Shown: piece after piece, positions 9,099 through 40,189 of the stretch
How positions within the stretch are numbered: the stretch's first letter is position 1
Layout: every line of letters begins with the position of its first letter
IMG/VR virus record: IMGVR_UViG_3300010362_000049
Coordinates: 1-40,312 of that record
Strand: one strand, 5' to 3'
DNA from: a virus
Taxonomy: Duplodnaviria; Caudoviricetes
Length of the DNA: 40,312 nt
The notes under the pieces: model-generated
The model's input: the letters and a program-made list of their open reading frames with translations, nothing else
What the model was told of the DNA's origin: nothing
The model's database searches: none
Translations under genes and position numbers: made by a program

Positions 9099-10586
9099 GT
9101 GGCGATCGTCCGATCCTTCGGCGTCTTCCAAAGCACCGAGCGCCGCGCTGCGTTAGTCCCGACCGTGAGTGCGGCGCCGGCCTTCGGCATGACCTACGGC
9201 CTCGGCCAGCAATACGCGCTGATCTATGCGTCACAGCCGAACGTGCGGACCTGCGTCGACTTTCTCGCGCGCAACATCGCACAAGTCGGGTATCACGTGT
9301 TTCGGCGGGTGTCGGATACCGATCGGGTGCGCTTGGCCGATCACCAACTCAGCGACTGGCTGGAGCACCCGAACCCGTACACCTCGAGGTACCGCCTGTT
9401 CGAGAGTTACGTGGCGGATCTCGCGCTCTATTTCAATGCGTACTGGCTGAAGGTGCGCGAGCCCGATCGCATCGGCCTGGTGCGCGTCCCACCGCCGTCG
9501 ATGACGGTCGAAGGCGGATTACTGCCGGAAACGTTCATCTATCACGGCAATACGCAGACGCCCTTTGCGCCGTCGGAAGTCGTCTATGCGAACGGGTACA
9601 ACCCACTAAATCCCATCTTCGGCCTCTCACCGATCGAAACGTTGCGGCGGGTACTGGCTGAGGAAGCGGCCGCCGGCGAGCACCGCGAACGGTACTGGCG
9701 CAATGCCTCTCGCATGGAAGGCATCATCGAGCGGCCGAAGGACGCACCGAGGTGGACGCCCGAACAGAAACAAAAATGGCGTGAGCAGTGGCAGCAGCGG
9801 TACACCGGTCCCGCGAGTGTCGGCGCCGTCCCGGTCTTAGAAGACGGCATGACCTTCAAAGAGATTTCCTACTCGATGAAGGATTCCGACTATCTCAACG
9901 CGCGCAAACTCACGCGCGAAGAGTGCGCCGCGGCCTGGCACATTCCGCTCCCGATGGTCGGCATTCTCGATCACGCCACCTTCAGCAACATCAAAGAGCA
10001 GCACAAACAGCTGTACCAAGACTGCCTCGGGCCCTGGCTGGAAATGCTGGCGCAAGCGATCGAATTACAACTGCTGCCGGACTGTCAGGATACCGCCGGC
10101 ATTTACACCGAATTCAACATTGCCGACAAGATGAAGGGTTCGTTTGAAGAGCAGGCGGACTCACTGCGGCAAGCGGTCGACGGGCCGATCATGACGGCGA
10201 ATGAAGCGCGCTCTCGCTTGAACTTACCGCGCCTCGATGATCCGCGCGCTGATCGCTTGAACGAACCACGCGGCGGGCCATCGGTCGAAGTGCGGCCTGG
10301 TGCGGCCGGCGCCGCGGTGCCGTCGATCGTGCGCGCGCACTGGGCCCGACAACGTTCGCGACTGGAGCGGCTACCAGTCGACGAGCGCGCCGAAGCCCTG
10401 AATCACCAGCGGTGCACCAGCGAGCTCGCGGCGGACCTCTCGCGTCACCTCGGCCGCGGCGAGGCCTGGACGTATGCGGCGCGGGTCACTGACGAGACAT
10501 ACACGCTCTTACTCGAAGGGCGCCAGGCTTTCGGCGCCGATCGGGAACCGCGGCCAGTGGAGTACAGCTATGACCAAGCGGCGTGA
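9099..10586 (+). CDS. HK97-family portal protein
   Basis: GLSPIE, VLEDGMTF, TFSNIKEQ, IMTANEARSRLNLP motifs. Confidence 0.95.
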   Translation: MAIVRSFGVFQSTERRAALVPTVSAAPAFGMTYGLGQQYALIYASQPNVRTCVDFLARNIAQVGYHVFRRVSDTDRVRLADHQLSDWLEHPNPYTSRYRLFESYVADLALYFNAYWLKVREPDRIGLVRVPPPSMTVEGGLLPETFIYHGNTQTPFAPSEVVYANGYNPLNPIFGLSPIETLRRVLAEEAAAGEHRERYWRNASRMEGIIERPKDAPRWTPEQKQKWREQWQQRYTGPASVGAVPVLEDGMTFKEISYSMKDSDYLNARKLTREECAAAWHIPLPMVGILDHATFSNIKEQHKQLYQDCLGPWLEMLAQAIELQLLPDCQDTAGIYTEFNIADKMKGSFEEQADSLRQAVDGPIMTANEARSRLNLPRLDDPRADRLNEPRGGPSVEVRPGAAGAAVPSIVRAHWARQRSRLERLPVDERAEALNHQRCTSELAADLSRHLGRGEAWTYAARVTDETYTLLLEGRQAFGADREPRPVEYSYDQAA

Positions 10587-11592
10587 TAGCGCGCGATACG
10601 AGCACTTAGTCGCGTTCGCACTGGAGCACCCGTGGGCGATTACGCCCGCGATGCGCGCGATCGTCGCGGGGATTCTCGTGCGGCGCATCGTCGGCGAGGA
10701 CCCCGACGAGGACGCGATCGCCGCGGCGATTCAAGCGCGAGAGACGCGCGTGCATCCGGTCAATAGCGGCGGGCTCGTGGCGGTCATTCCGATCGCGGGT
10801 GTGCTCGCACCGCGCATGAATCTGTTTTCCGACATGAGCGGCGGCACGTCATTCGAGTTACTCAGCAAACAATTCAGAACCGCCGTCGATGATCCGAATG
10901 TGAAGACCGTCGTTTTCGACGTCGATAGTCCAGGCGGGAACGTCGCGGGTGCGACCGAGTTCGCGCGCGAGGTCCTGAAGGCGCGCACGCAGAAACGGAT
11001 CATCGCGCACGCACAGTACCTGATGGCCTCAGCGAGTTACTGGCCGATGGCGTGCGCGACTGAGATTGTCGCGTCACCCTCGGCAATGGTCGGATCGATC
11101 GGCGTCTATGCCTTGCACGATGACGTGAGCGAGATGCTCGCGAAGATGGGCATCAAGCGCGAAGTTTTCACCGCGGGCAAATACAAAGGCGAAGGCGCCG
11201 ACGGCGGGCCTCTGTCCGAGGATGCCCGCGCGCACGTCCAAACCTTGATCGATGGATCGTACGGGCGCTTTGTCGGCGACGTCGCGAAAGGCCGCGGTGT
11301 GTCACCAGCCGAGGTCCGCAAGGGTTTCGGCGAAGGCCGCGCGCTCGGTGCCGAGGCCGCTCTAAGTGCCGGCCTGATCGATCGGATCGATACGTTTGAA
11401 AACACACTCGCCCGCGCGAGTAAGCCGACCTCGAGCGGCGACGCGCGCGGCACGCTGGAGTCACCGCCCGTGGTCACGGACCAGGAGCCGGCACCGCCGG
11501 CCACGTCCCAGGAATCACGCGCGGCGATCGATGCGTCGTTTGTCGAGTACGAGCAGCGAGTGCTTGCACTCACGACAAAGAGGCTGCGATGA
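10570..11592 (+). CDS. S49-family prohead protease
   Basis: DVDSPGG, ASASYW, VGSIGV, AGKYK, GLIDRI motifs; start MTKRR at 10570. Confidence 0.92.
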   Translation: MTKRRDSARYEHLVAFALEHPWAITPAMRAIVAGILVRRIVGEDPDEDAIAAAIQARETRVHPVNSGGLVAVIPIAGVLAPRMNLFSDMSGGTSFELLSKQFRTAVDDPNVKTVVFDVDSPGGNVAGATEFAREVLKARTQKRIIAHAQYLMASASYWPMACATEIVASPSAMVGSIGVYALHDDVSEMLAKMGIKREVFTAGKYKGEGADGGPLSEDARAHVQTLIDGSYGRFVGDVAKGRGVSPAEVRKGFGEGRALGAEAALSAGLIDRIDTFENTLARASKPTSSGDARGTLESPPVVTDQEPAPPATSQESRAAIDASFVEYEQRVLALTTKRLR

Positions 11593-12896
11593 ATACCGTG
11601 CAATGGGAATCGGATTTGCGCGCGGCGACTAACAAGGCCCGCGCACTCATCGAAACGATCACGCAAACCTGTCAGGAGCATGTCACCCCGGCGACCGCCA
11701 CCGCGCCGGCGGTCACCGGCCGACTGATGACGGCTGACGAGCGCGCGAGTATCGACGCGGCGCTGGCAGCCGCGGAAGAGATTCAGAAGAAAATCGATCG
11801 CGCACAAAGTGACGCCTCGATGCTCGCACGGCTCGACAAGATGACGGGCGGCGCCGGCACGCGGCCGACCTCGACCGGTGGCAATGGCGGCACCGGACTC
11901 ACGTTGCATCAGCAATCAGTCGGCCGGCAGTTTGTGCAGTCGGCTGAATTCCAGAACCTGATCAAGAGTCGGTTACATCGCGGGTCGAGTTCCTGGTCAA
12001 CCGGCGCCGTCGAGTGCTTCAACCTACGTGCGACCACGATCACCTCTGACCCCGCGTCGGCCGGCAAACTGATCGTGCCGCAGTATCTACCCGGGATTCA
12101 GCCGCTCCTATTCAAGCGCCTGGTGGTCGCCGACTTGATGGGCTCGGGCACAACGGATTCAAACGCGATCGTCTACATGGTGGAAACGGTCTTCACCAAT
12201 GCGGCGACGCCCGTGGCAGAAGGCGCCGCGAAGCCGGAAAGCACGTTAGTTTTCGATCAGAAAACGGACCCGGTGTCGAAGATTGCGCATTGGATTCCTG
12301 TCACCGAGGAACTCCTGGAAGACGTGCCCGCGATGGAGAGTTACATCGATGCGCGCTTGCGGCTCGGTGTCGAACTCGCCGAGGAAGACCAGTTACTCAA
12401 CGGCAACGGCACCCCGCCGAATGTGCTCGGCCTCATGAATCGGTCGGGCCTCGCGCCGGCATTGGCGCGCGATTCGGCGGCCACGCCACCGGAAACAAAC
12501 GCCGATGTGCTCGCGCGGCAGACGATGGCGATCGCGACCAGCTCGTTTGTCTATCCCGATGGGTACATGCTGAATCCGGCCAACTGGTTCAAGATCCAGA
12601 TCAGCAAAGACAACAACGGGCAGTACTACGGCATGGGACCATTCTCGCCGCTCCCGACGCCGTCGTTGTGGGGCTTACCCGTCGCGGTCACGCCGTCGAT
12701 CGTTGCGGGCACGGGACTGGTGGGTGCGTTCAGCACGCAGTCACAAGTCTTCCGCAAGGGTGGGATTCGCGTCGAAGCGAGTAACAGTCACCAAGACTAC
12801 TTCATCAAAAACCTCGTCGCGATTCGCGCGGAAGAACGCCTCGCGCTCGCGGTGTATCGGCCTGGTGCGTTCGGCAAAGTGACCGGACTCAACTAA
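11589..12896 (+). CDS. HK97-fold major capsid protein
   Basis: Coiled-coil delta domain; VAEGAAKPES, EDQLLNGNG, LWGLPV, NLVAIRAEERLAL. Confidence 0.95.
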   Translation: MNTVQWESDLRAATNKARALIETITQTCQEHVTPATATAPAVTGRLMTADERASIDAALAAAEEIQKKIDRAQSDASMLARLDKMTGGAGTRPTSTGGNGGTGLTLHQQSVGRQFVQSAEFQNLIKSRLHRGSSSWSTGAVECFNLRATTITSDPASAGKLIVPQYLPGIQPLLFKRLVVADLMGSGTTDSNAIVYMVETVFTNAATPVAEGAAKPESTLVFDQKTDPVSKIAHWIPVTEELLEDVPAMESYIDARLRLGVELAEEDQLLNGNGTPPNVLGLMNRSGLAPALARDSAATPPETNADVLARQTMAIATSSFVYPDGYMLNPANWFKIQISKDNNGQYYGMGPFSPLPTPSLWGLPVAVTPSIVAGTGLVGAFSTQSQVFRKGGIRVEASNSHQDYFIKNLVAIRAEERLALAVYRPGAFGKVTGLN

Positions 12897-24699: not shown

Positions 24700-26382
24700 T
24701 CACGCCACGACTAAATCGGGATCGTCGGCGACGGGCGCCGCGGTGAGGCGTAACAGGATGTTCCAGGCGATCGCGAGCGCCACGATCGGATCGATGCGGC
24801 CGCGGCTGCGTTTCTTCGCCGGCAGGATATTGTCTTTGTCGTCACGTTTCACCACGATGTTACTCGCCGCCCACTCCATCACCGGGCAAGCGCCGGCATT
24901 GACCGCGCCGGCGAGCACTTCCGCTTCAAGCTCCTTACAGCCGCTCGACATACCCGCGTAGGTTTGCGACACCTCGAGGATCTGATCCTCACTGAATCCG
25001 TCTTCCTCTTGGAGTGCGACTTCTAACTGATCGGCATGCCAAGGATCGAAGCCGACCGCTTGAATCACCGCGAGCGCGGCGAGCTGCGCGAGCGCATCGC
25101 GAATCACCTGATGATTCACCTTGGTCCCAGGCACCGCGATCAGATGTCCCGCTTCGACCCATTGCGGATACGGCGCCCGATCACGATGCGCGCGATCCTC
25201 TAACGTGTCGGCCGGCGTCCAAATCCATCGGAGCACGCGCCACTGACTCACGTTCGGTGTCGGTGGAAACAACGCCGTCATCGCGCACAAGTCGAGTTTC
25301 GAGGCGAGGTCGATGCCGACGGCGCACGGCTGACCGCGCAGGTCCTCGCGCGCCCACGTGCGCGATTGACCTTTGCGCCAGCCATCGAGCGATAGCCACG
25401 GCTGACTCGTGTGCACCCAGATGTTCAACCGTTTCTGTTTGTAGGCCGCGGCCGCGGCGGGAATGCCTTGTGCCTTGCGCACTAACGCCGCGAGATCATC
25501 GGGCTTCACTGAGACGCCGTAGTTGGGATTCGCCTTGCGCGCGGTTTTCAGACTCGTCCAATCGTCTGACGGATCGGCGTGAGCGATGAACGCGAAGTAC
25601 GTATCATCGACTAACACGCGCTCAAGGATCTGACACGCATAGTGGTGCTCCTGCCCGCACGGTGAATTCGGATCGTCACCCGCCGTCGTGATCTTGAAGA
25701 CGATCGGTTGACGGCGCGCACCCGTCGACGTTTCGAGCACGTCGATCATGCCGCGCGTTTTGTACTTGTGAATTTCATCCAGACTGAGAAAGTGAATGTT
25801 GAGGCCGTCGAGTGAATCTTCGTCGGCGCCAAGTGGTTCGAGCTTCGACGCACTCACGTCGCGATAGAGGTTCGACATCAGCACCGCGATGCGGGTGCGC
25901 AACCCGCTCGTGAGCACTAACCGCTTCGCATCGTTGAAAACGATCCGCGCCTGGTCTTTCTTCGTCGCCGCGCAGTACCCTTCGGCACCGGGCTCGCCGT
26001 CGAAGAATGTGGCGTAGACGGCGACCACCGCATCCTCAAGCGACTTCCCTTGTTTGCGCGGTAGCTCGTTGTACGAATGCCGGAACCGTCGCAACCCGCT
26101 ATCACGATGCACCCATCCGAAGAGTGAGCCGAGGCGGTACTGTTGATGCGGCTGCCAGCGAATGAACTGACCGGCCCACTCACCTTTGTAGTGCTTCAAC
26201 TGCTCGCCGAAACGCAGGAAGCGATCGGCGCGATCGAGGTCTAGCAGATACGAAAACCGGCGGGTGCCTTCACGCCGGCGATCGTACTCGTGCCGCTCGC
26301 ACGCGAGGCGATGATACTTACCGGCCGGCACTTTGCCACTGACGACGCTGCGGACATAGGCGTCGATCGGGTGCCGCGCCAT
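24700..26382 (-). CDS. terL: Terminase large subunit
   Basis: Walker A PRKQGKS, Walker B LSLDEIH, ITTAG, GIDLASKLDL, RIDPIVA. Confidence 0.96.
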   Translation of the reverse strand: MARHPIDAYVRSVVSGKVPAGKYHRLACERHEYDRRREGTRRFSYLLDLDRADRFLRFGEQLKHYKGEWAGQFIRWQPHQQYRLGSLFGWVHRDSGLRRFRHSYNELPRKQGKSLEDAVVAVYATFFDGEPGAEGYCAATKKDQARIVFNDAKRLVLTSGLRTRIAVLMSNLYRDVSASKLEPLGADEDSLDGLNIHFLSLDEIHKYKTRGMIDVLETSTGARRQPIVFKITTAGDDPNSPCGQEHHYACQILERVLVDDTYFAFIAHADPSDDWTSLKTARKANPNYGVSVKPDDLAALVRKAQGIPAAAAAYKQKRLNIWVHTSQPWLSLDGWRKGQSRTWAREDLRGQPCAVGIDLASKLDLCAMTALFPPTPNVSQWRVLRWIWTPADTLEDRAHRDRAPYPQWVEAGHLIAVPGTKVNHQVIRDALAQLAALAVIQAVGFDPWHADQLEVALQEEDGFSEDQILEVSQTYAGMSSGCKELEAEVLAGAVNAGACPVMEWAASNIVVKRDDKDNILPAKKRSRGRIDPIVALAIAWNILLRLTAAPVADDPDLVVA

Positions 26383-26396
26383 GATCGCGGCCTCAA

Positions 26397-26903
26397 CTAA
26401 TTCGAGCGCCGCGGGCCTGGCGGTGCCGGCGGCATCGGCTGATCGAATTCACTAAATGGATCGTCGGCGGGCGGGCGAGTCACAGTCACGCGCGATCGAC
26501 TCGACGGCGTGAGCCCAAGTTCCGGCCAGAGCCGCGCACACCCGGCGAGCGCCTTTGTCGCGATCGACAGATACGGATTCGGAATCGGGTACCCGTTCGG
26601 CGTACTGACGACTAAGCCGGCGGTGCGGACCTTCGCCGTCGCATCGAGGTACCGCGCCCATTCGAGACAGAGCGCGAGCAGCGCGGCACGATCGGCATTC
26701 GTGATCTGGCGGGCCTGGACTAACAGCGGCGCCAACCGCTGCCATTCGGCGAGCGCCAGCGGCGCATCGACTAACTCCGCCGGCGGTGTCAGAAAGGCGT
26801 CGTCACTCACGGCCGGCTTGGGCTCGTCTGGATTGGTGCCGCGTTTACCGGGATAGCCCGCGAGTTCTTTGCGCCAGGACGGCAGCGGTTTACGACCGCG
26901 CAT
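26397..26903 (-). CDS. terS: Terminase small subunit (P27 family)
   Basis: MRGRKP, W..LAP.L, NPYL, ELGLTPSSRSR. Confidence 0.92.
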   Translation of the reverse strand: MRGRKPLPSWRKELAGYPGKRGTNPDEPKPAVSDDAFLTPPAELVDAPLALAEWQRLAPLLVQARQITNADRAALLALCLEWARYLDATAKVRTAGLVVSTPNGYPIPNPYLSIATKALAGCARLWPELGLTPSSRSRVTVTRPPADDPFSEFDQPMPPAPPGPRRSN

Positions 26904-28299: not shown

Positions 28300-28830
28300 G
28301 GCGCTGCGGTGCGGTGAGCGGTGCGATCGGCGGGTGCCGCGGGTGCGGTGCGAGCGGTGCGATCGGGTGCGGCGCCGCGGTGCGGCGGGCTTCGCCAGAG
28401 GCCCGCGGCGGGCGCCAGAGGCCCGCGGGTGCGGCGGGCCCGCCTGAGGCCCGCCAGAGCCCGCCGCTCGTGCAGGCCGGCCACGTCGACACCGATCGAG
28501 AGCCCGCGGCGGGCGCCAGAGGCCCGCGGGTGCGGCGGGCCCGCCTGAGGCCCGCCAGAGCCCGCCAGAGCCCGCGGCGGGCGCCAAAGGCCCGCGGGTG
28601 CGGCGGGCCCGCCTGAGGCCCGCCCAGAGCCCGCCAGAGGCCCGCGGCGGGCGCCAGAGGCCCGCGGGTGCGGCGGGCCCGCCTGAGGCCCGCCAGAGCC
28701 CGCCAGAGCCCGCCAGAGGCCCGCGGCGGGCGCCAGAGGCCGCGGGTGCGGCGGGCCCGCCTGAGGCCCGCCCAGAGCCCGCCCAGAGCCCGCGGCGGGT
28801 GCGGGCGATCGGGTGTCGGGTGCGGGTGCA
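28300..28830. repeat. Very GC-rich tandem repeat region, five ~60-80 bp copies
   Basis: Core gcccgcggcgggcgccagaggcccgcgggtgcggcgggcccgcctgaggcccgccagag starts near 28401, 28502, 28570, 28640, 28719. Confidence 0.9.
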
Positions 28831-32543: not shown

Positions 32544-32836
32544 GATTTGTGATCAATTTGTGATCGATTTGCTGAAAAGCGCGCGTCAGCACTAACACAC
32601 GATGAAAAGGAAATTGAAGAATTGCTAAGGAATTAGAAGCGCGCGTAAGCCTACGTAAGCACCAGCCTTCTAAAGTCAGGCTTAGAAGGCCGGTGCTCTA
32701 TCCAACTGAGCTACGGGCGCATATGTGGGCTAAGTGCGTGCTATGCCAAGCGTTTAGCGCCTTTGATCAATCGCGGCATTCGACTAAGTGCTAACGCCGT
32801 TTGGTGATTTGTGATCGATTTGTGATCGATTTGCTG
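32544..32836. other. attP: tRNA-derived core flanked by integrase arm-type repeats
   Basis: (g/a)atttgtgatc x2 plus gatttgctg at both 32544-32574 and 32806-32836; 16-bp inverted arms at 32658-32673 / 32682-32697. Confidence 0.85.
32679..32720 (-). tRNA. 5' half of tRNA-Arg(TCT) (attP identity segment, not a full tRNA)
   Basis: GCGCCCGTAGCTCAGTTGGATAGAGCACCGGCCTTCTAAGCC; acceptor 5' strand, D-arm and anticodon loop present, no T-arm. Confidence 0.88.
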
Positions 32837-35187: not shown

Positions 35188-35768
35188 CCTGCCTTCCGCA
35201 CCGTGCCTTGTCGCCCGAGACTGGCCCAAAGCGGGGTGGCCCAGTCTTACCGCGACTCACGAGAACGGCCATGCCGCACGCCGTCATGCCTCAACATTCC
35301 ATTCATGTCACGTCAATCGCTACCGCATCGCGACGTGGCGGCCTTGTCTAACACGCCTTGCCCGAACGCGCCTGGATAGACGTGCCGTTACCCGCCGCAT
35401 CTTTGTCGGCCGTAACAAACCCGACCCCGCCCCGCCGGGTACGATCCCGCGCGACCGTGCCGAGCCGAATCGGCCGCGTCAGATCGCGCGCCTTGTCGCG
35501 TCGAACCGAGCCTGAGCGAGTCACGCCGGATCTCGCGAAGCCTCCGATGTCACGTCGGCCGCGTCGGAACTGAGTGAGGCTGATCCAATCTCGTCCCGTC
35601 ACACCTAGCCGGCCATACCCAATCTAACCGCGCCGCGCCCTTCGCATGCAGCCAGGCGCCGAGCTTCCGCGCCACTCGCGTCACCCATAACGGGCCTTGC
35701 CCGACCTGCCAAACCGGAACTGACCATATCCTGAGAAGCGTTCCGCCCGTCGCAACGCCCATGCCGAA
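35188..35768 (-). ncRNA. Periodic (GGY/GAY/GTY-NN)n guide-like array, about 8-9 segments (VIPR-like)
   Basis: Visible 5-nt period, e.g. GGC TA GGT GT GAC GG GAC GA GAT TG GAT CA; junctions GGC-C-G / GGC-A-G ending at + positions 35193, 35270, 35343, 35411, 35475, 35560, 35614, (35653), 35710; no credible ORF. Confidence 0.85.
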
Positions 35769-37162: not shown

Positions 37163-37468
37163 TCACAAGCCGCGCCCCGTCTTTGCGCCGTGGCACCCGT
37201 GACAGAGCGCCTGCAAGTTAGTTTCGTCCCAAAAGAGCGCGAGATCGCCGCGGTGCGGAATGCGATGATCGACATCGACGGTCCGATCACCGCAGTCACA
37301 AACCGGCTTCGATCGGAGCACGCGAGCGCGCAAGCGGCGCCAGCGCGGCGATCGATAGAGCGCGCGCACCGCGGCATTCGGCCGCACCGCGTCACGAAAA
37401 GGATCATGCTTGCGGCAGTACCCATGCGCGACTAACGTGCGGCAGCGCGGCCGCAGACAGAACCTCAC
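37163..37468 (-). CDS. Terminase-associated (gp74-like) HNH endonuclease
   Basis: Y.S.RW..LR..VL...P.C...VDH.IPH.G...LFWD..NLQALC..CH..KT. Confidence 0.9.
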   Translation of the reverse strand: MRFCLRPRCRTLVAHGYCRKHDPFRDAVRPNAAVRALYRSPRWRRLRARVLRSKPVCDCGDRTVDVDHRIPHRGDLALFWDETNLQALCHGCHGAKTGRGL

Positions 37469-38959: not shown

Positions 38960-39451
38960 TCACGGTACGACCTCGAAGAGCGGCATCGGCGCCGCGGGCA
39001 CTGAGATGGGCTCGACGGCCGCCGTCGCTTCGACCCGGATGTCGACGTGCGGTGCGTCACCTTCGCGCGCGTAGTACTTCGCGGTGACTAGCTCGCAGAC
39101 CTGAGAGTCGTCAGCGAATAGCACGTGCGAGAGTGCATCACAGCACGCGCGCACGAGTTTATCGACGTCGGGCCGTTTGGTATGCGCGGTGTATTTCCGC
39201 GGCAGCGACTTCGGCCGCGGCAGATAGAACGCAATCGAGAGACGGACGCCGTCGACTAACAAGCCGCGATCGGTCGGCGGCAATCGGAGCAGCGCCGCGT
39301 TTGCGCATTCGCCGACTAACTGCCGCCAACTCTTCACGTCCGGGTTATCGCTCGTGATGATCGGCCGGCTGTGACCCTTGGGCACGAACGCGCGCGCACT
39401 CCCTTGCGGTTGCGCTTCACCGAAGACCGTGAACTCGAGAGGCTCACGCAT
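38960..39451 (-). CDS. rusA: RusA-family Holliday junction resolvase
   Basis: PQGS, FYLPRPKS, PDVDKLVRA..DAL......DDSQV. Confidence 0.9.
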   Translation of the reverse strand: MREPLEFTVFGEAQPQGSARAFVPKGHSRPIITSDNPDVKSWRQLVGECANAALLRLPPTDRGLLVDGVRLSIAFYLPRPKSLPRKYTAHTKRPDVDKLVRACCDALSHVLFADDSQVCELVTAKYYAREGDAPHVDIRVEATAAVEPISVPAAPMPLFEVVP

Positions 39452-39628
39452 CGGTGTCGATCCCTTTGAACTCGATGCCCACGCCGGCGATTCGCGCAGC
39501 CAGGCGAATCAACTTCGCCGCGAGCCAGATACGCACACGCAGCGCACGCACACCGATCACCTCGACGTGCATCGTCACGTTTTTCGTGATCACGTTCGCG
39601 GGCATCTTCGCGTGCAAGTCAGAGTCAG

Positions 39629-40189
39629 TCACGCCAGCACCGGCGGAAGTGCGCGCGTGAAACGCCGCGGCCAATTCGCGAGACAGTGATCGCGTGCCTC
39701 GTACCACCGCGCAAGCTCGTCACCGTGCGCCCAGTGGCCAACGGTGACTACGTGGCCTTTGCCCGGATGCCACGCGCGCGCGTCGCGTCCATCGTCGGTG
39801 AACTCCGGAACGAATCGCAGAAATCGGTGAGTCACGCCGGCGTCCTGGCAGAGTAGACAGAAGCACCCATCGTCCTGATAGCGGAGCAGCTCGGCGCGCG
39901 TGTAGTCACGCGCTTCGTCTTCGGACATCACGCGCACATCGGCGCCGGCCGCGGCCGCGGGTGCCATCTCGCTGAGTGCGGCGAGCCATTCGGCCGGCTT
40001 CGGAAACGTGCGACTAGTTTCGAGCAATCGCCGGCCGGCACTGAGCACCGCATCGAGCGGTGCGTGGCTGAGTAGTTTGAAATACAAGCGCGTCAACTCA
40101 TCGAAATCGGCCGGCTTGGCTTTCAATCGAAAGGCACTGGAGAAGCGCCGGAAGGCGCTCTCGAAAGTGCCGAAGTCACTATCGAGCAT
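39629..40189 (-). CDS. Hypothetical protein, possible helicase loader/inhibitor-like N-terminus
   Basis: Y...L........A...L......FPKPAEW pattern plus CxxC. Confidence 0.5.
   Translation of the reverse strand: MLDSDFGTFESAFRRFSSAFRLKAKPADFDELTRLYFKLLSHAPLDAVLSAGRRLLETSRTFPKPAEWLAALSEMAPAAAAGADVRVMSEDEARDYTRAELLRYQDDGCFCLLCQDAGVTHRFLRFVPEFTDDGRDARAWHPGKGHVVTVGHWAHGDELARWYEARDHCLANWPRRFTRALPPVLA

Follow-up and report, generated by a model that had tools for sequence, protein, structure and literature searches.

What gene is the last segment of a pentamer repeat array in a phage genome directed against, and what would it do to a phage that carries that gene? The question arises from the genome referred to here as the window, an entire virus record of 40,312 bases (62% GC) that carries integrase, terminase, portal, protease and capsid genes. 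The last segment of its array occupies positions 35188-35266 (79 bases). The first-pass annotation had read the segment as the terminal motif of terminase-associated HNH nucleases, and suggested that binding at the end of a competitor's HNH gene could block late transcription or packaging.

The locus

VIPR is a CRISPR-like silencing system described in 2026, with a layout of Vipr, vap and vrRNA (bioRxiv 10.64898/2026.04.26.720920; supplement PMC13142463). The order on the minus strand of the window is a small HNH gene, a 286-aa gene, a 153-aa gene, about 580 nt of pentamer repeats, DUF6166, an HTH_17 gene and the integrase gene (Table 1).

Table 1. Features of the VIPR-like locus in the window
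Feature	Position	Strand	Remarks
Own small HNH gene	37163..37468	-	PF01844, PHROG 144; 46-47% identical to target HNH
Vipr-like RAMP gene, 286 aa	36235..37095	-	model pLDDT 80.9; G-loop GVGDGR
Accessory (vap-like) gene, 153 aa	35769..36230	-	no Pfam family; PHROG 15946 (unknown function)
Whole pentamer array, ~110 units	35189..35765	-	[ggCC]/[ggCA] units cut the array into 7 segments (this parse)
4-nt [ggCC] boundary unit, directly upstream of guide	35267..35270	-	unit type separating guides in related arrays
Guide (predicted vrRNA): 15 NN units including two 4-nt units, plus terminal ggcAG	35189..35266	-	decodes to HNH C-terminus

The 286-aa protein has 1110 relatives among 7998 scored candidates, and the best folds in the PDB for its model are chains of Csm/Cmr complexes (E 2.7e-5, TM 0.39/0.51). 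This RAMP-fold gene sits outside any CRISPR-cas locus and its neighbours are phage genes. As tblastn of the protein against GenBank phages gave no match at E 0.01, its kinship to the characterised Viprs of SUSP1, P. fulva and X1U2U4 rests on fold and locus layout. The G-loop of the Vipr-like proteins, GD[GW]R, resembles D177-W178-R179 of the SUSP1 structure (10.64898/2026.04.26.720927). An alignment-based search found 384 related viral loci, a search with the single Vipr protein as query having given none, and the best 80 of the 384 were parsed; homologues of the accessory vap-like gene are present in 79 of these 80. With a RAMP fold as modelled, an accessory gene and a pentamer array, the locus is VIPR-like.

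Two sets of repeats elsewhere in the window may be recorded here. GC-rich tandem repeats with periods of 59, 79 and 148 are present at 28393-28799, and a 31-nt direct repeat (97%) with 11-nt units is found at 32544-32574 and 32806-32836, at the 3' end of the integrase gene, the copies being candidate att or arm sites.

Organisation of the array

The array is made up of relaxed GGY/NN pentamers in numbers per guide that lie within the 9-16 looked for in VIPR. Among the 8613 units parsed in the best 80 of the 384 loci, 823 have four bases (616 of them GGCA, GGCG, GGCT or GGCC), and such units divide the related arrays into guides of mostly 8-12 units each. These boundary units agree with the published staggered arrays, a form of VIPR with one-base overlaps (bioRxiv 10.64898/2026.04.26.720920). 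In the window too the guides succeed one another across 4-nt units with no tail between them, and the conserved structured 3' tail that follows each guide in type II, SUSP1-like arrays was not found in this array. Two of its long segments probably comprise two guides each.

The published VIPR text describes strict pentamers with some degeneracy (bioRxiv 10.64898/2026.04.26.720920). In this array the share of GGY scaffolds is 42% and the relaxation spans the whole array. G at scaffold position 2 is found in 66% of units beside GDGR Viprs (10 loci) as against 81% beside GDWR Viprs (45 loci), a difference with P 0.0015 before any correction for kinship. In SUSP1 the G-loop Trp stacks on the position-2 G of the scaffold (10.64898/2026.04.26.720927), and we infer that this Trp corresponds to the Gly/Trp position of the G-loop in the present clade.

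Two other guides of the array can also be read in part. The guide at 35561-35610 (minus strand) has a clean run of 10 units decoding to Y V G [DE] [CW] [HQ] S [HQ] P A, which we take to be like the JAB/MPN metalloprotease motif of CBASS Cap3-like proteins, so that it is possibly aimed at a host defence gene; nine of its units gave no exact match in IMG/VR. The guide at 35476-35556 (minus strand) begins V [IM] [DE] [FL] [DE] P, similar to a ParA/Soj motif, and has no match above background in the window or in the related phage genome G001 discussed below.

Reading of the last guide

On the minus strand (35266-35189) the segment reads gttCT cgtGA gtcGC ggtAA gacTG ggcCA cccCG cttTG ggcCA gtcTC [ggGC] gacAA ggcAC ggtGC [ggAA] ggcAG, with four-base units in brackets, and decodes to L [DE] A [KN] [CW] [HQ] R [CW] [HQ] S A [KN] T A [KN]. 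The 15 NN and the decoded motif given in the first-pass annotation were reproduced exactly, and its borders are those of one guide, since the segment begins right after [ggCC] and ends in ggcAG like several related arrays. One DNA sequencing run, possibly the source of the record, covers the stretch with no gap, and no RNA data set containing it was listed.

When the guide is read with the 1-nt-skip code and compared with a profile built from 79 HNH C-termini, it obtains 37.0 bits, more than expected by chance, as 498 real guides of related arrays taken at all offsets and in both orientations give at most 9.9 bits. The identification of the segment as the end of a small HNH nuclease of phages is supported. 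Because the profile was built up from the best target and its relatives, the columns for E and K are in part circular; those for L, C, H, C, H, K and T are general. HNH-like guides are not enriched in the related arrays (1 in 498, null mean 0.47). We conclude with considerable confidence that the guide is real and VIPR-like, and that it either came from a sibling phage's HNH gene or is directed against such a gene.

With regard to the two short scaffolds that had been thought necessary near the 3' end, the first stands and the second is optional, because the last unit can be read as ggaAG (R/S) with a better fit to the family (40.2 bits; R is found in 55 of the 79 and K/N in 2 of the 79). Unit 11 has an alternative in gggCG acAA, with R for A (38.8 bits); the best natural site has GC there. 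Beyond the four-base unit the register carries on: with NN frequencies taken from the arrays themselves, the fit of units 11-14 to the HNH profile has P ~0.0004, or ~0.001 when the open parses are counted. Either the deletion postdates acquisition of the guide or Vipr steps over a four-base unit.

Three other readings of the segment were rejected. A strict five-base parse gives 21.0 bits, and past the slip 0 of 5 units match the best natural site. The antisense reading gives -9 bits, and also contains a CxxC because the guide core is palindromic. A structured RNA, with a hairpin formed by the palindromic TG-CA..TG-CA core (minus strand, region 35225-35247), has z -0.79 against shuffles. As coding sequence the stretch has short and overlapping ORFs only.

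Searches for natural target sites

The first-pass annotation had proposed a database search with the NN pattern. An exact scan of IMG/VR with the central nine units gave 4 matches, all 4 of them in frame in HNH genes and each no more than about 2 kb upstream of terL. Outside the search pattern the CT of unit 1 is present in 4/4 and the GC of unit 14 in 3/4, and the GA and AA of units 2 and 4 in 0/4. A scan with units 3-10, in the 5' half, gave 11 matches, ten of which look random, the other being an HNH gene with the atypical E and K. Of the 14 bases that the search pattern left free, this gene (locus L086, in G001) matches 10, and no more than 5 are matched by any of the other 10 sites or by any of the 20 found in a control scan with a 2-nt skip; the excess has a binomial P of ~0.007, corrected for 11 matches.

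In metagenomes the core scan gave about 170 loci, and among the 119 listed 30 were flagged as HNH-like by a crude rule, a few of them falsely; GA at unit 2 is present in 1 of these 30 and AA at unit 4 in none. An exact scan of metagenome contigs with units 2-13 gave no match, and no perfect site for the whole guide was found in any search. The best match at the protein level to the decoded motif among HNH relatives is 12/15. A scan for K-C-H-x-C-H-S-x-K-T gave 28 matches, 5 of them in HNH genes, with a best score of 23/30, and across related loci the 1-nt-skip signal is slight (87 against 52 and 68 of 411 at 0.8 or more). A 13-unit guide of locus L016 has an in-frame site, with 24/26 nt matching, near position 959 of L018, which is itself a phage locus with VIPR.

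The best site and its HNH subclade

The best natural site is in the HNH gene of IMGVR_UViG_3300045927_000142 (G001), which ends LEAKCHRCHSATTVR. It matches the guide in frame at 26/30 nt (87%) and 12/15 units (80%), the first 11 units (22 nt) being exact, and the skipped bases fall on third (wobble) codon positions. Over 16 units the site scores 26 under skip 1 as against 19 under skips 0, 2 and 3, and none of 500 order-shuffled guides reached 26 in the G001 genome. The other segments of the array have no match above background in G001.

G001 is related to the window phage, with identities of 70% for terL, 63% for terS, 58% for portal, 53% for capsid and 46% for HNH, and tail genes also in common; gene content and GC suggest a common host, though neither the GTDB scan nor a marker protein pointed to a host taxon. 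No match to vipr was found in the G001 record, which is 91% complete. The two genomes may also be compared in layout. In the window terS/terL (24700-26903, minus strand) and portal/capsid (9099-12896, plus strand) are on opposite strands and at least 12 kb apart, while in G001 terL is followed by portal, and the window gene at 39444-39707 resembles the gene after terL in G001. The split in the window is either a rearrangement or an assembly join.

The mismatches of the G001 site are at units 12, 14 and 15, all on the 3' side and all after the first short unit; engagement by SUSP1 Vipr begins at the 3' side (10.64898/2026.04.26.720927). They correspond to non-consensus residues in G001, Thr replacing the Lys found in 78/79 and Val at unit 14 being found in 3/79. 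This could be escape, but general decay is as likely, because just upstream of the site the G001 HNH has also lost an Asn, having Ile where 4 of 5 aligned rows have Asn. As it departs from the family at that Asn and at the Lys within the site, the G001 HNH may be non-functional.

The HNH subclade of G001 supplies the remaining decoded residues, in P0132 (LEAKCHRCHSSKT / LEAKCHRCHSSKTGR), P0149 (LDAKCHRCHSSKT / LDAKCHRCHSSKTGH), P0127 (VQAKCHRCHSAKT / VQAKCHRCHSAKTGR) and P0138 (LKAKCHACHSAKTAR). K/N at unit 4, before the first Cys, is found in 11/79 close relatives and 0/98 wider relatives, counts that omit the proteins without the C..CH motif (43/122 close and 46/144 wider). On the sequences compared E-A-K-C is thus unusual and confined to this subclade. 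The phage actually targeted is probably a sibling of G001 that has yet to be sampled.

Proposed effect on the rival phage

Our preferred reading, which we consider probable, is that a guide RNA from the last array segment silences the small HNH gene of related temperate phages. Following the VIPR papers, the array would be transcribed and processed at its 4-nt boundaries, and the variable dinucleotides would pair with the 3' end of the rival's HNH gene, two bases on and one skipped. Vipr loaded with the guide would form a filament over the 45 bp with which the conserved part of that gene ends, and the bound filament would act as a roadblock to its transcription. The 1-nt skip, wobble alignment and silencing from either strand are described in bioRxiv 10.64898/2026.04.26.720920, and in the case of SUSP1 vrRNA4 a six-unit footprint inside coding sequence suffices (10.64898/2026.10.15.759431). 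GP74 of HK97 promotes cos cleavage (PMC9410871), and packaging of the rival would therefore suffer: by analogy with HK97, a rival without the HNH product would have a terminase that cuts cos poorly, and would package poorly.

The guide is predicted to read the zinc-binding CxxCH codons together with the subclade-specific E and K codons. The zinc-binding codons are not free to change. The phage's own HNH gene differs at the E and K codons, and with 8/15 units matching the own copy would be spared. We lean, by a modest margin, to the guide being active and to silencing as described.

Alternative explanations

The score of the G001 site is no proof of targeting in itself, as 26/30 is also reached by a non-HNH metagenome match (L108) and by a Rhodobacter gene (L222). 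The latter is the best of 7 matches, among 24 in GTDB, that belong to one Rhodobacter/Thioclava CxxCH gene family; none of the 24 reads as HNH. The family may be host cytochrome-c-like. It is very unlikely, however, that the target is another CxxCH gene or that the resemblance is due to chance: the other CxxCH matches have neither CT at the start nor AC at unit 13, units 11-14 fit the HNH profile as described above, and the HNH match sits in a close relative of the window phage. A target nearer home would be the phage's own HNH copy, which ends 68 bp before vipr and which the guide would attenuate as operon feedback. Its site at 37172-37216 is the best 1-nt-skip site in the window, the gene directly precedes the VIPR operon in the same orientation, and the match of 8/15 dinucleotides reported in the first-pass annotation was confirmed (20/30 nt). 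However, order-shuffled guides often do as well (84 of 500 have a site in the window that scores at least 20), the longest exact run is 3 units, HNH adjoins vipr in only 1 of 80 related loci, and the score is under the 80% NN-match cut-off of the VIPR papers (bioRxiv 10.64898/2026.04.26.720920; PMC13142463). We regard such feedback as most improbable, and the low score of the own site is consistent with self-avoidance.

Two further explanations accept the HNH gene but not the effect that we prefer. One is that an HNH-derived guide has decayed by one-base deletions and scaffold changes after acquisition, such that only the ten 5' units work or the guide is dead. The guide has two 4-nt units and degenerate scaffolds, with canonical GGY in 5 of 13 five-base units and with ccc and ctt, which are rare in related arrays (4 and 7 times); every G001 mismatch lies past the first short unit, and in SUSP1 Vipr structures there is one protomer per five-base repeat (10.64898/2026.04.26.720927). 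Against decay, the third-position pyrimidine is kept in 13/13 five-base units, internal units of other than five bases occur in 108 of the 498 related guides, with two or more of them in 25 (some of these being parse errors or unusual boundaries), and the relaxation of scaffolds is array-wide and tracks the Trp-to-Gly change in the G-loop. On these grounds we think decay unlikely. The other explanation, which we think less likely still, supposes a true target in which HNH and terS are neighbours, with the bound filament either exerting a polar block on the late genes downstream or covering a site close to cos. In its favour, the site lies at the 3' end of its gene, HNH, terS and terL are co-directional in G001, and in the four core matches HNH is 0.3-2 kb from terL. 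These four are, however, the matches that have neither E nor K (0/4 each). The first-pass annotation had HNH normally beside cos/terS, which does not hold for the best site: in G001 some 3 kb separate the gene from terS, which lies downstream, and the interval contains other genes and two promoter-like sites (a weak point, 1.1 being expected). HNH is also far from the terminase genes, upstream of excisionase/integrase, in the window and in L265, a second relative. With this distance in G001 the suggested block of late transcription is weak, and loss of the HNH product is the likelier and better-supported effect.

Relation to known systems and significance

The present locus is like the staggered-array VIPR described in the text of bioRxiv 10.64898/2026.04.26.720920 in having a stand-alone RAMP gene with one accessory gene and a pentamer array, a 1-nt-skip code with wobble skips, 1-nt phase shifts between guides, and a predicted target in a competing phage with no self site at 80%. 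It differs in its strongly relaxed scaffolds (42% GGY), in 4-nt units inside the guide that appear to be read in register, in having no long structured tail and in its target, a small HNH gene. With SUSP1 vrRNA4, which is directed against the F5 satellite recombinase (10.64898/2026.10.15.759431), it shares the reading of constrained codons in a gene that a competitor needs. In our case that competitor is a related phage of full size, its HNH product is predicted to assist packaging, and the case is known from sequence alone. The target HNH is like those of the HK97 gp74 type (PMC9410871, PMC3592412) in being stand-alone, of ~100-113 aa, in PHROG 144 and in phages with a TerL_ATPase/TerL_nuclease (PHROG 9) terminase, and differs in not being adjacent to terS in G001 or the window.

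HNH is not named as a VIPR target in the main text of 10.64898/2026.04.26.720920, where the term occurs once for a Vap domain, or in that of 10.64898/2026.10.15.759431, where it is absent, though the target tables of either may list it; a literature search pairing VIPR with HNH endonuclease found nothing in print.

We also put forward a wider suggestion, as tentative and in our own view doubtful. In the Vipr clade with Gly for Trp in the G-loop the code may be looser, with non-GG scaffolds accepted and four-base units stepped over in register, and one guide would then suffice against the packaging HNH throughout a subclade of sibling phages with the own copy spared, amounting to kin discrimination at packaging.

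So far, most mapping of natural VIPR targets has concerned types II, III and V, and the present case offers a concrete guide-target pair for a large clade of soil phages with staggered arrays. The strictness of the five-base repeat rule is directly testable here, and it matters both for VIPR guide design and for target searches that allow no slips. With regard to the phages themselves, the pair points to DNA packaging as the step that would be attacked between siblings.
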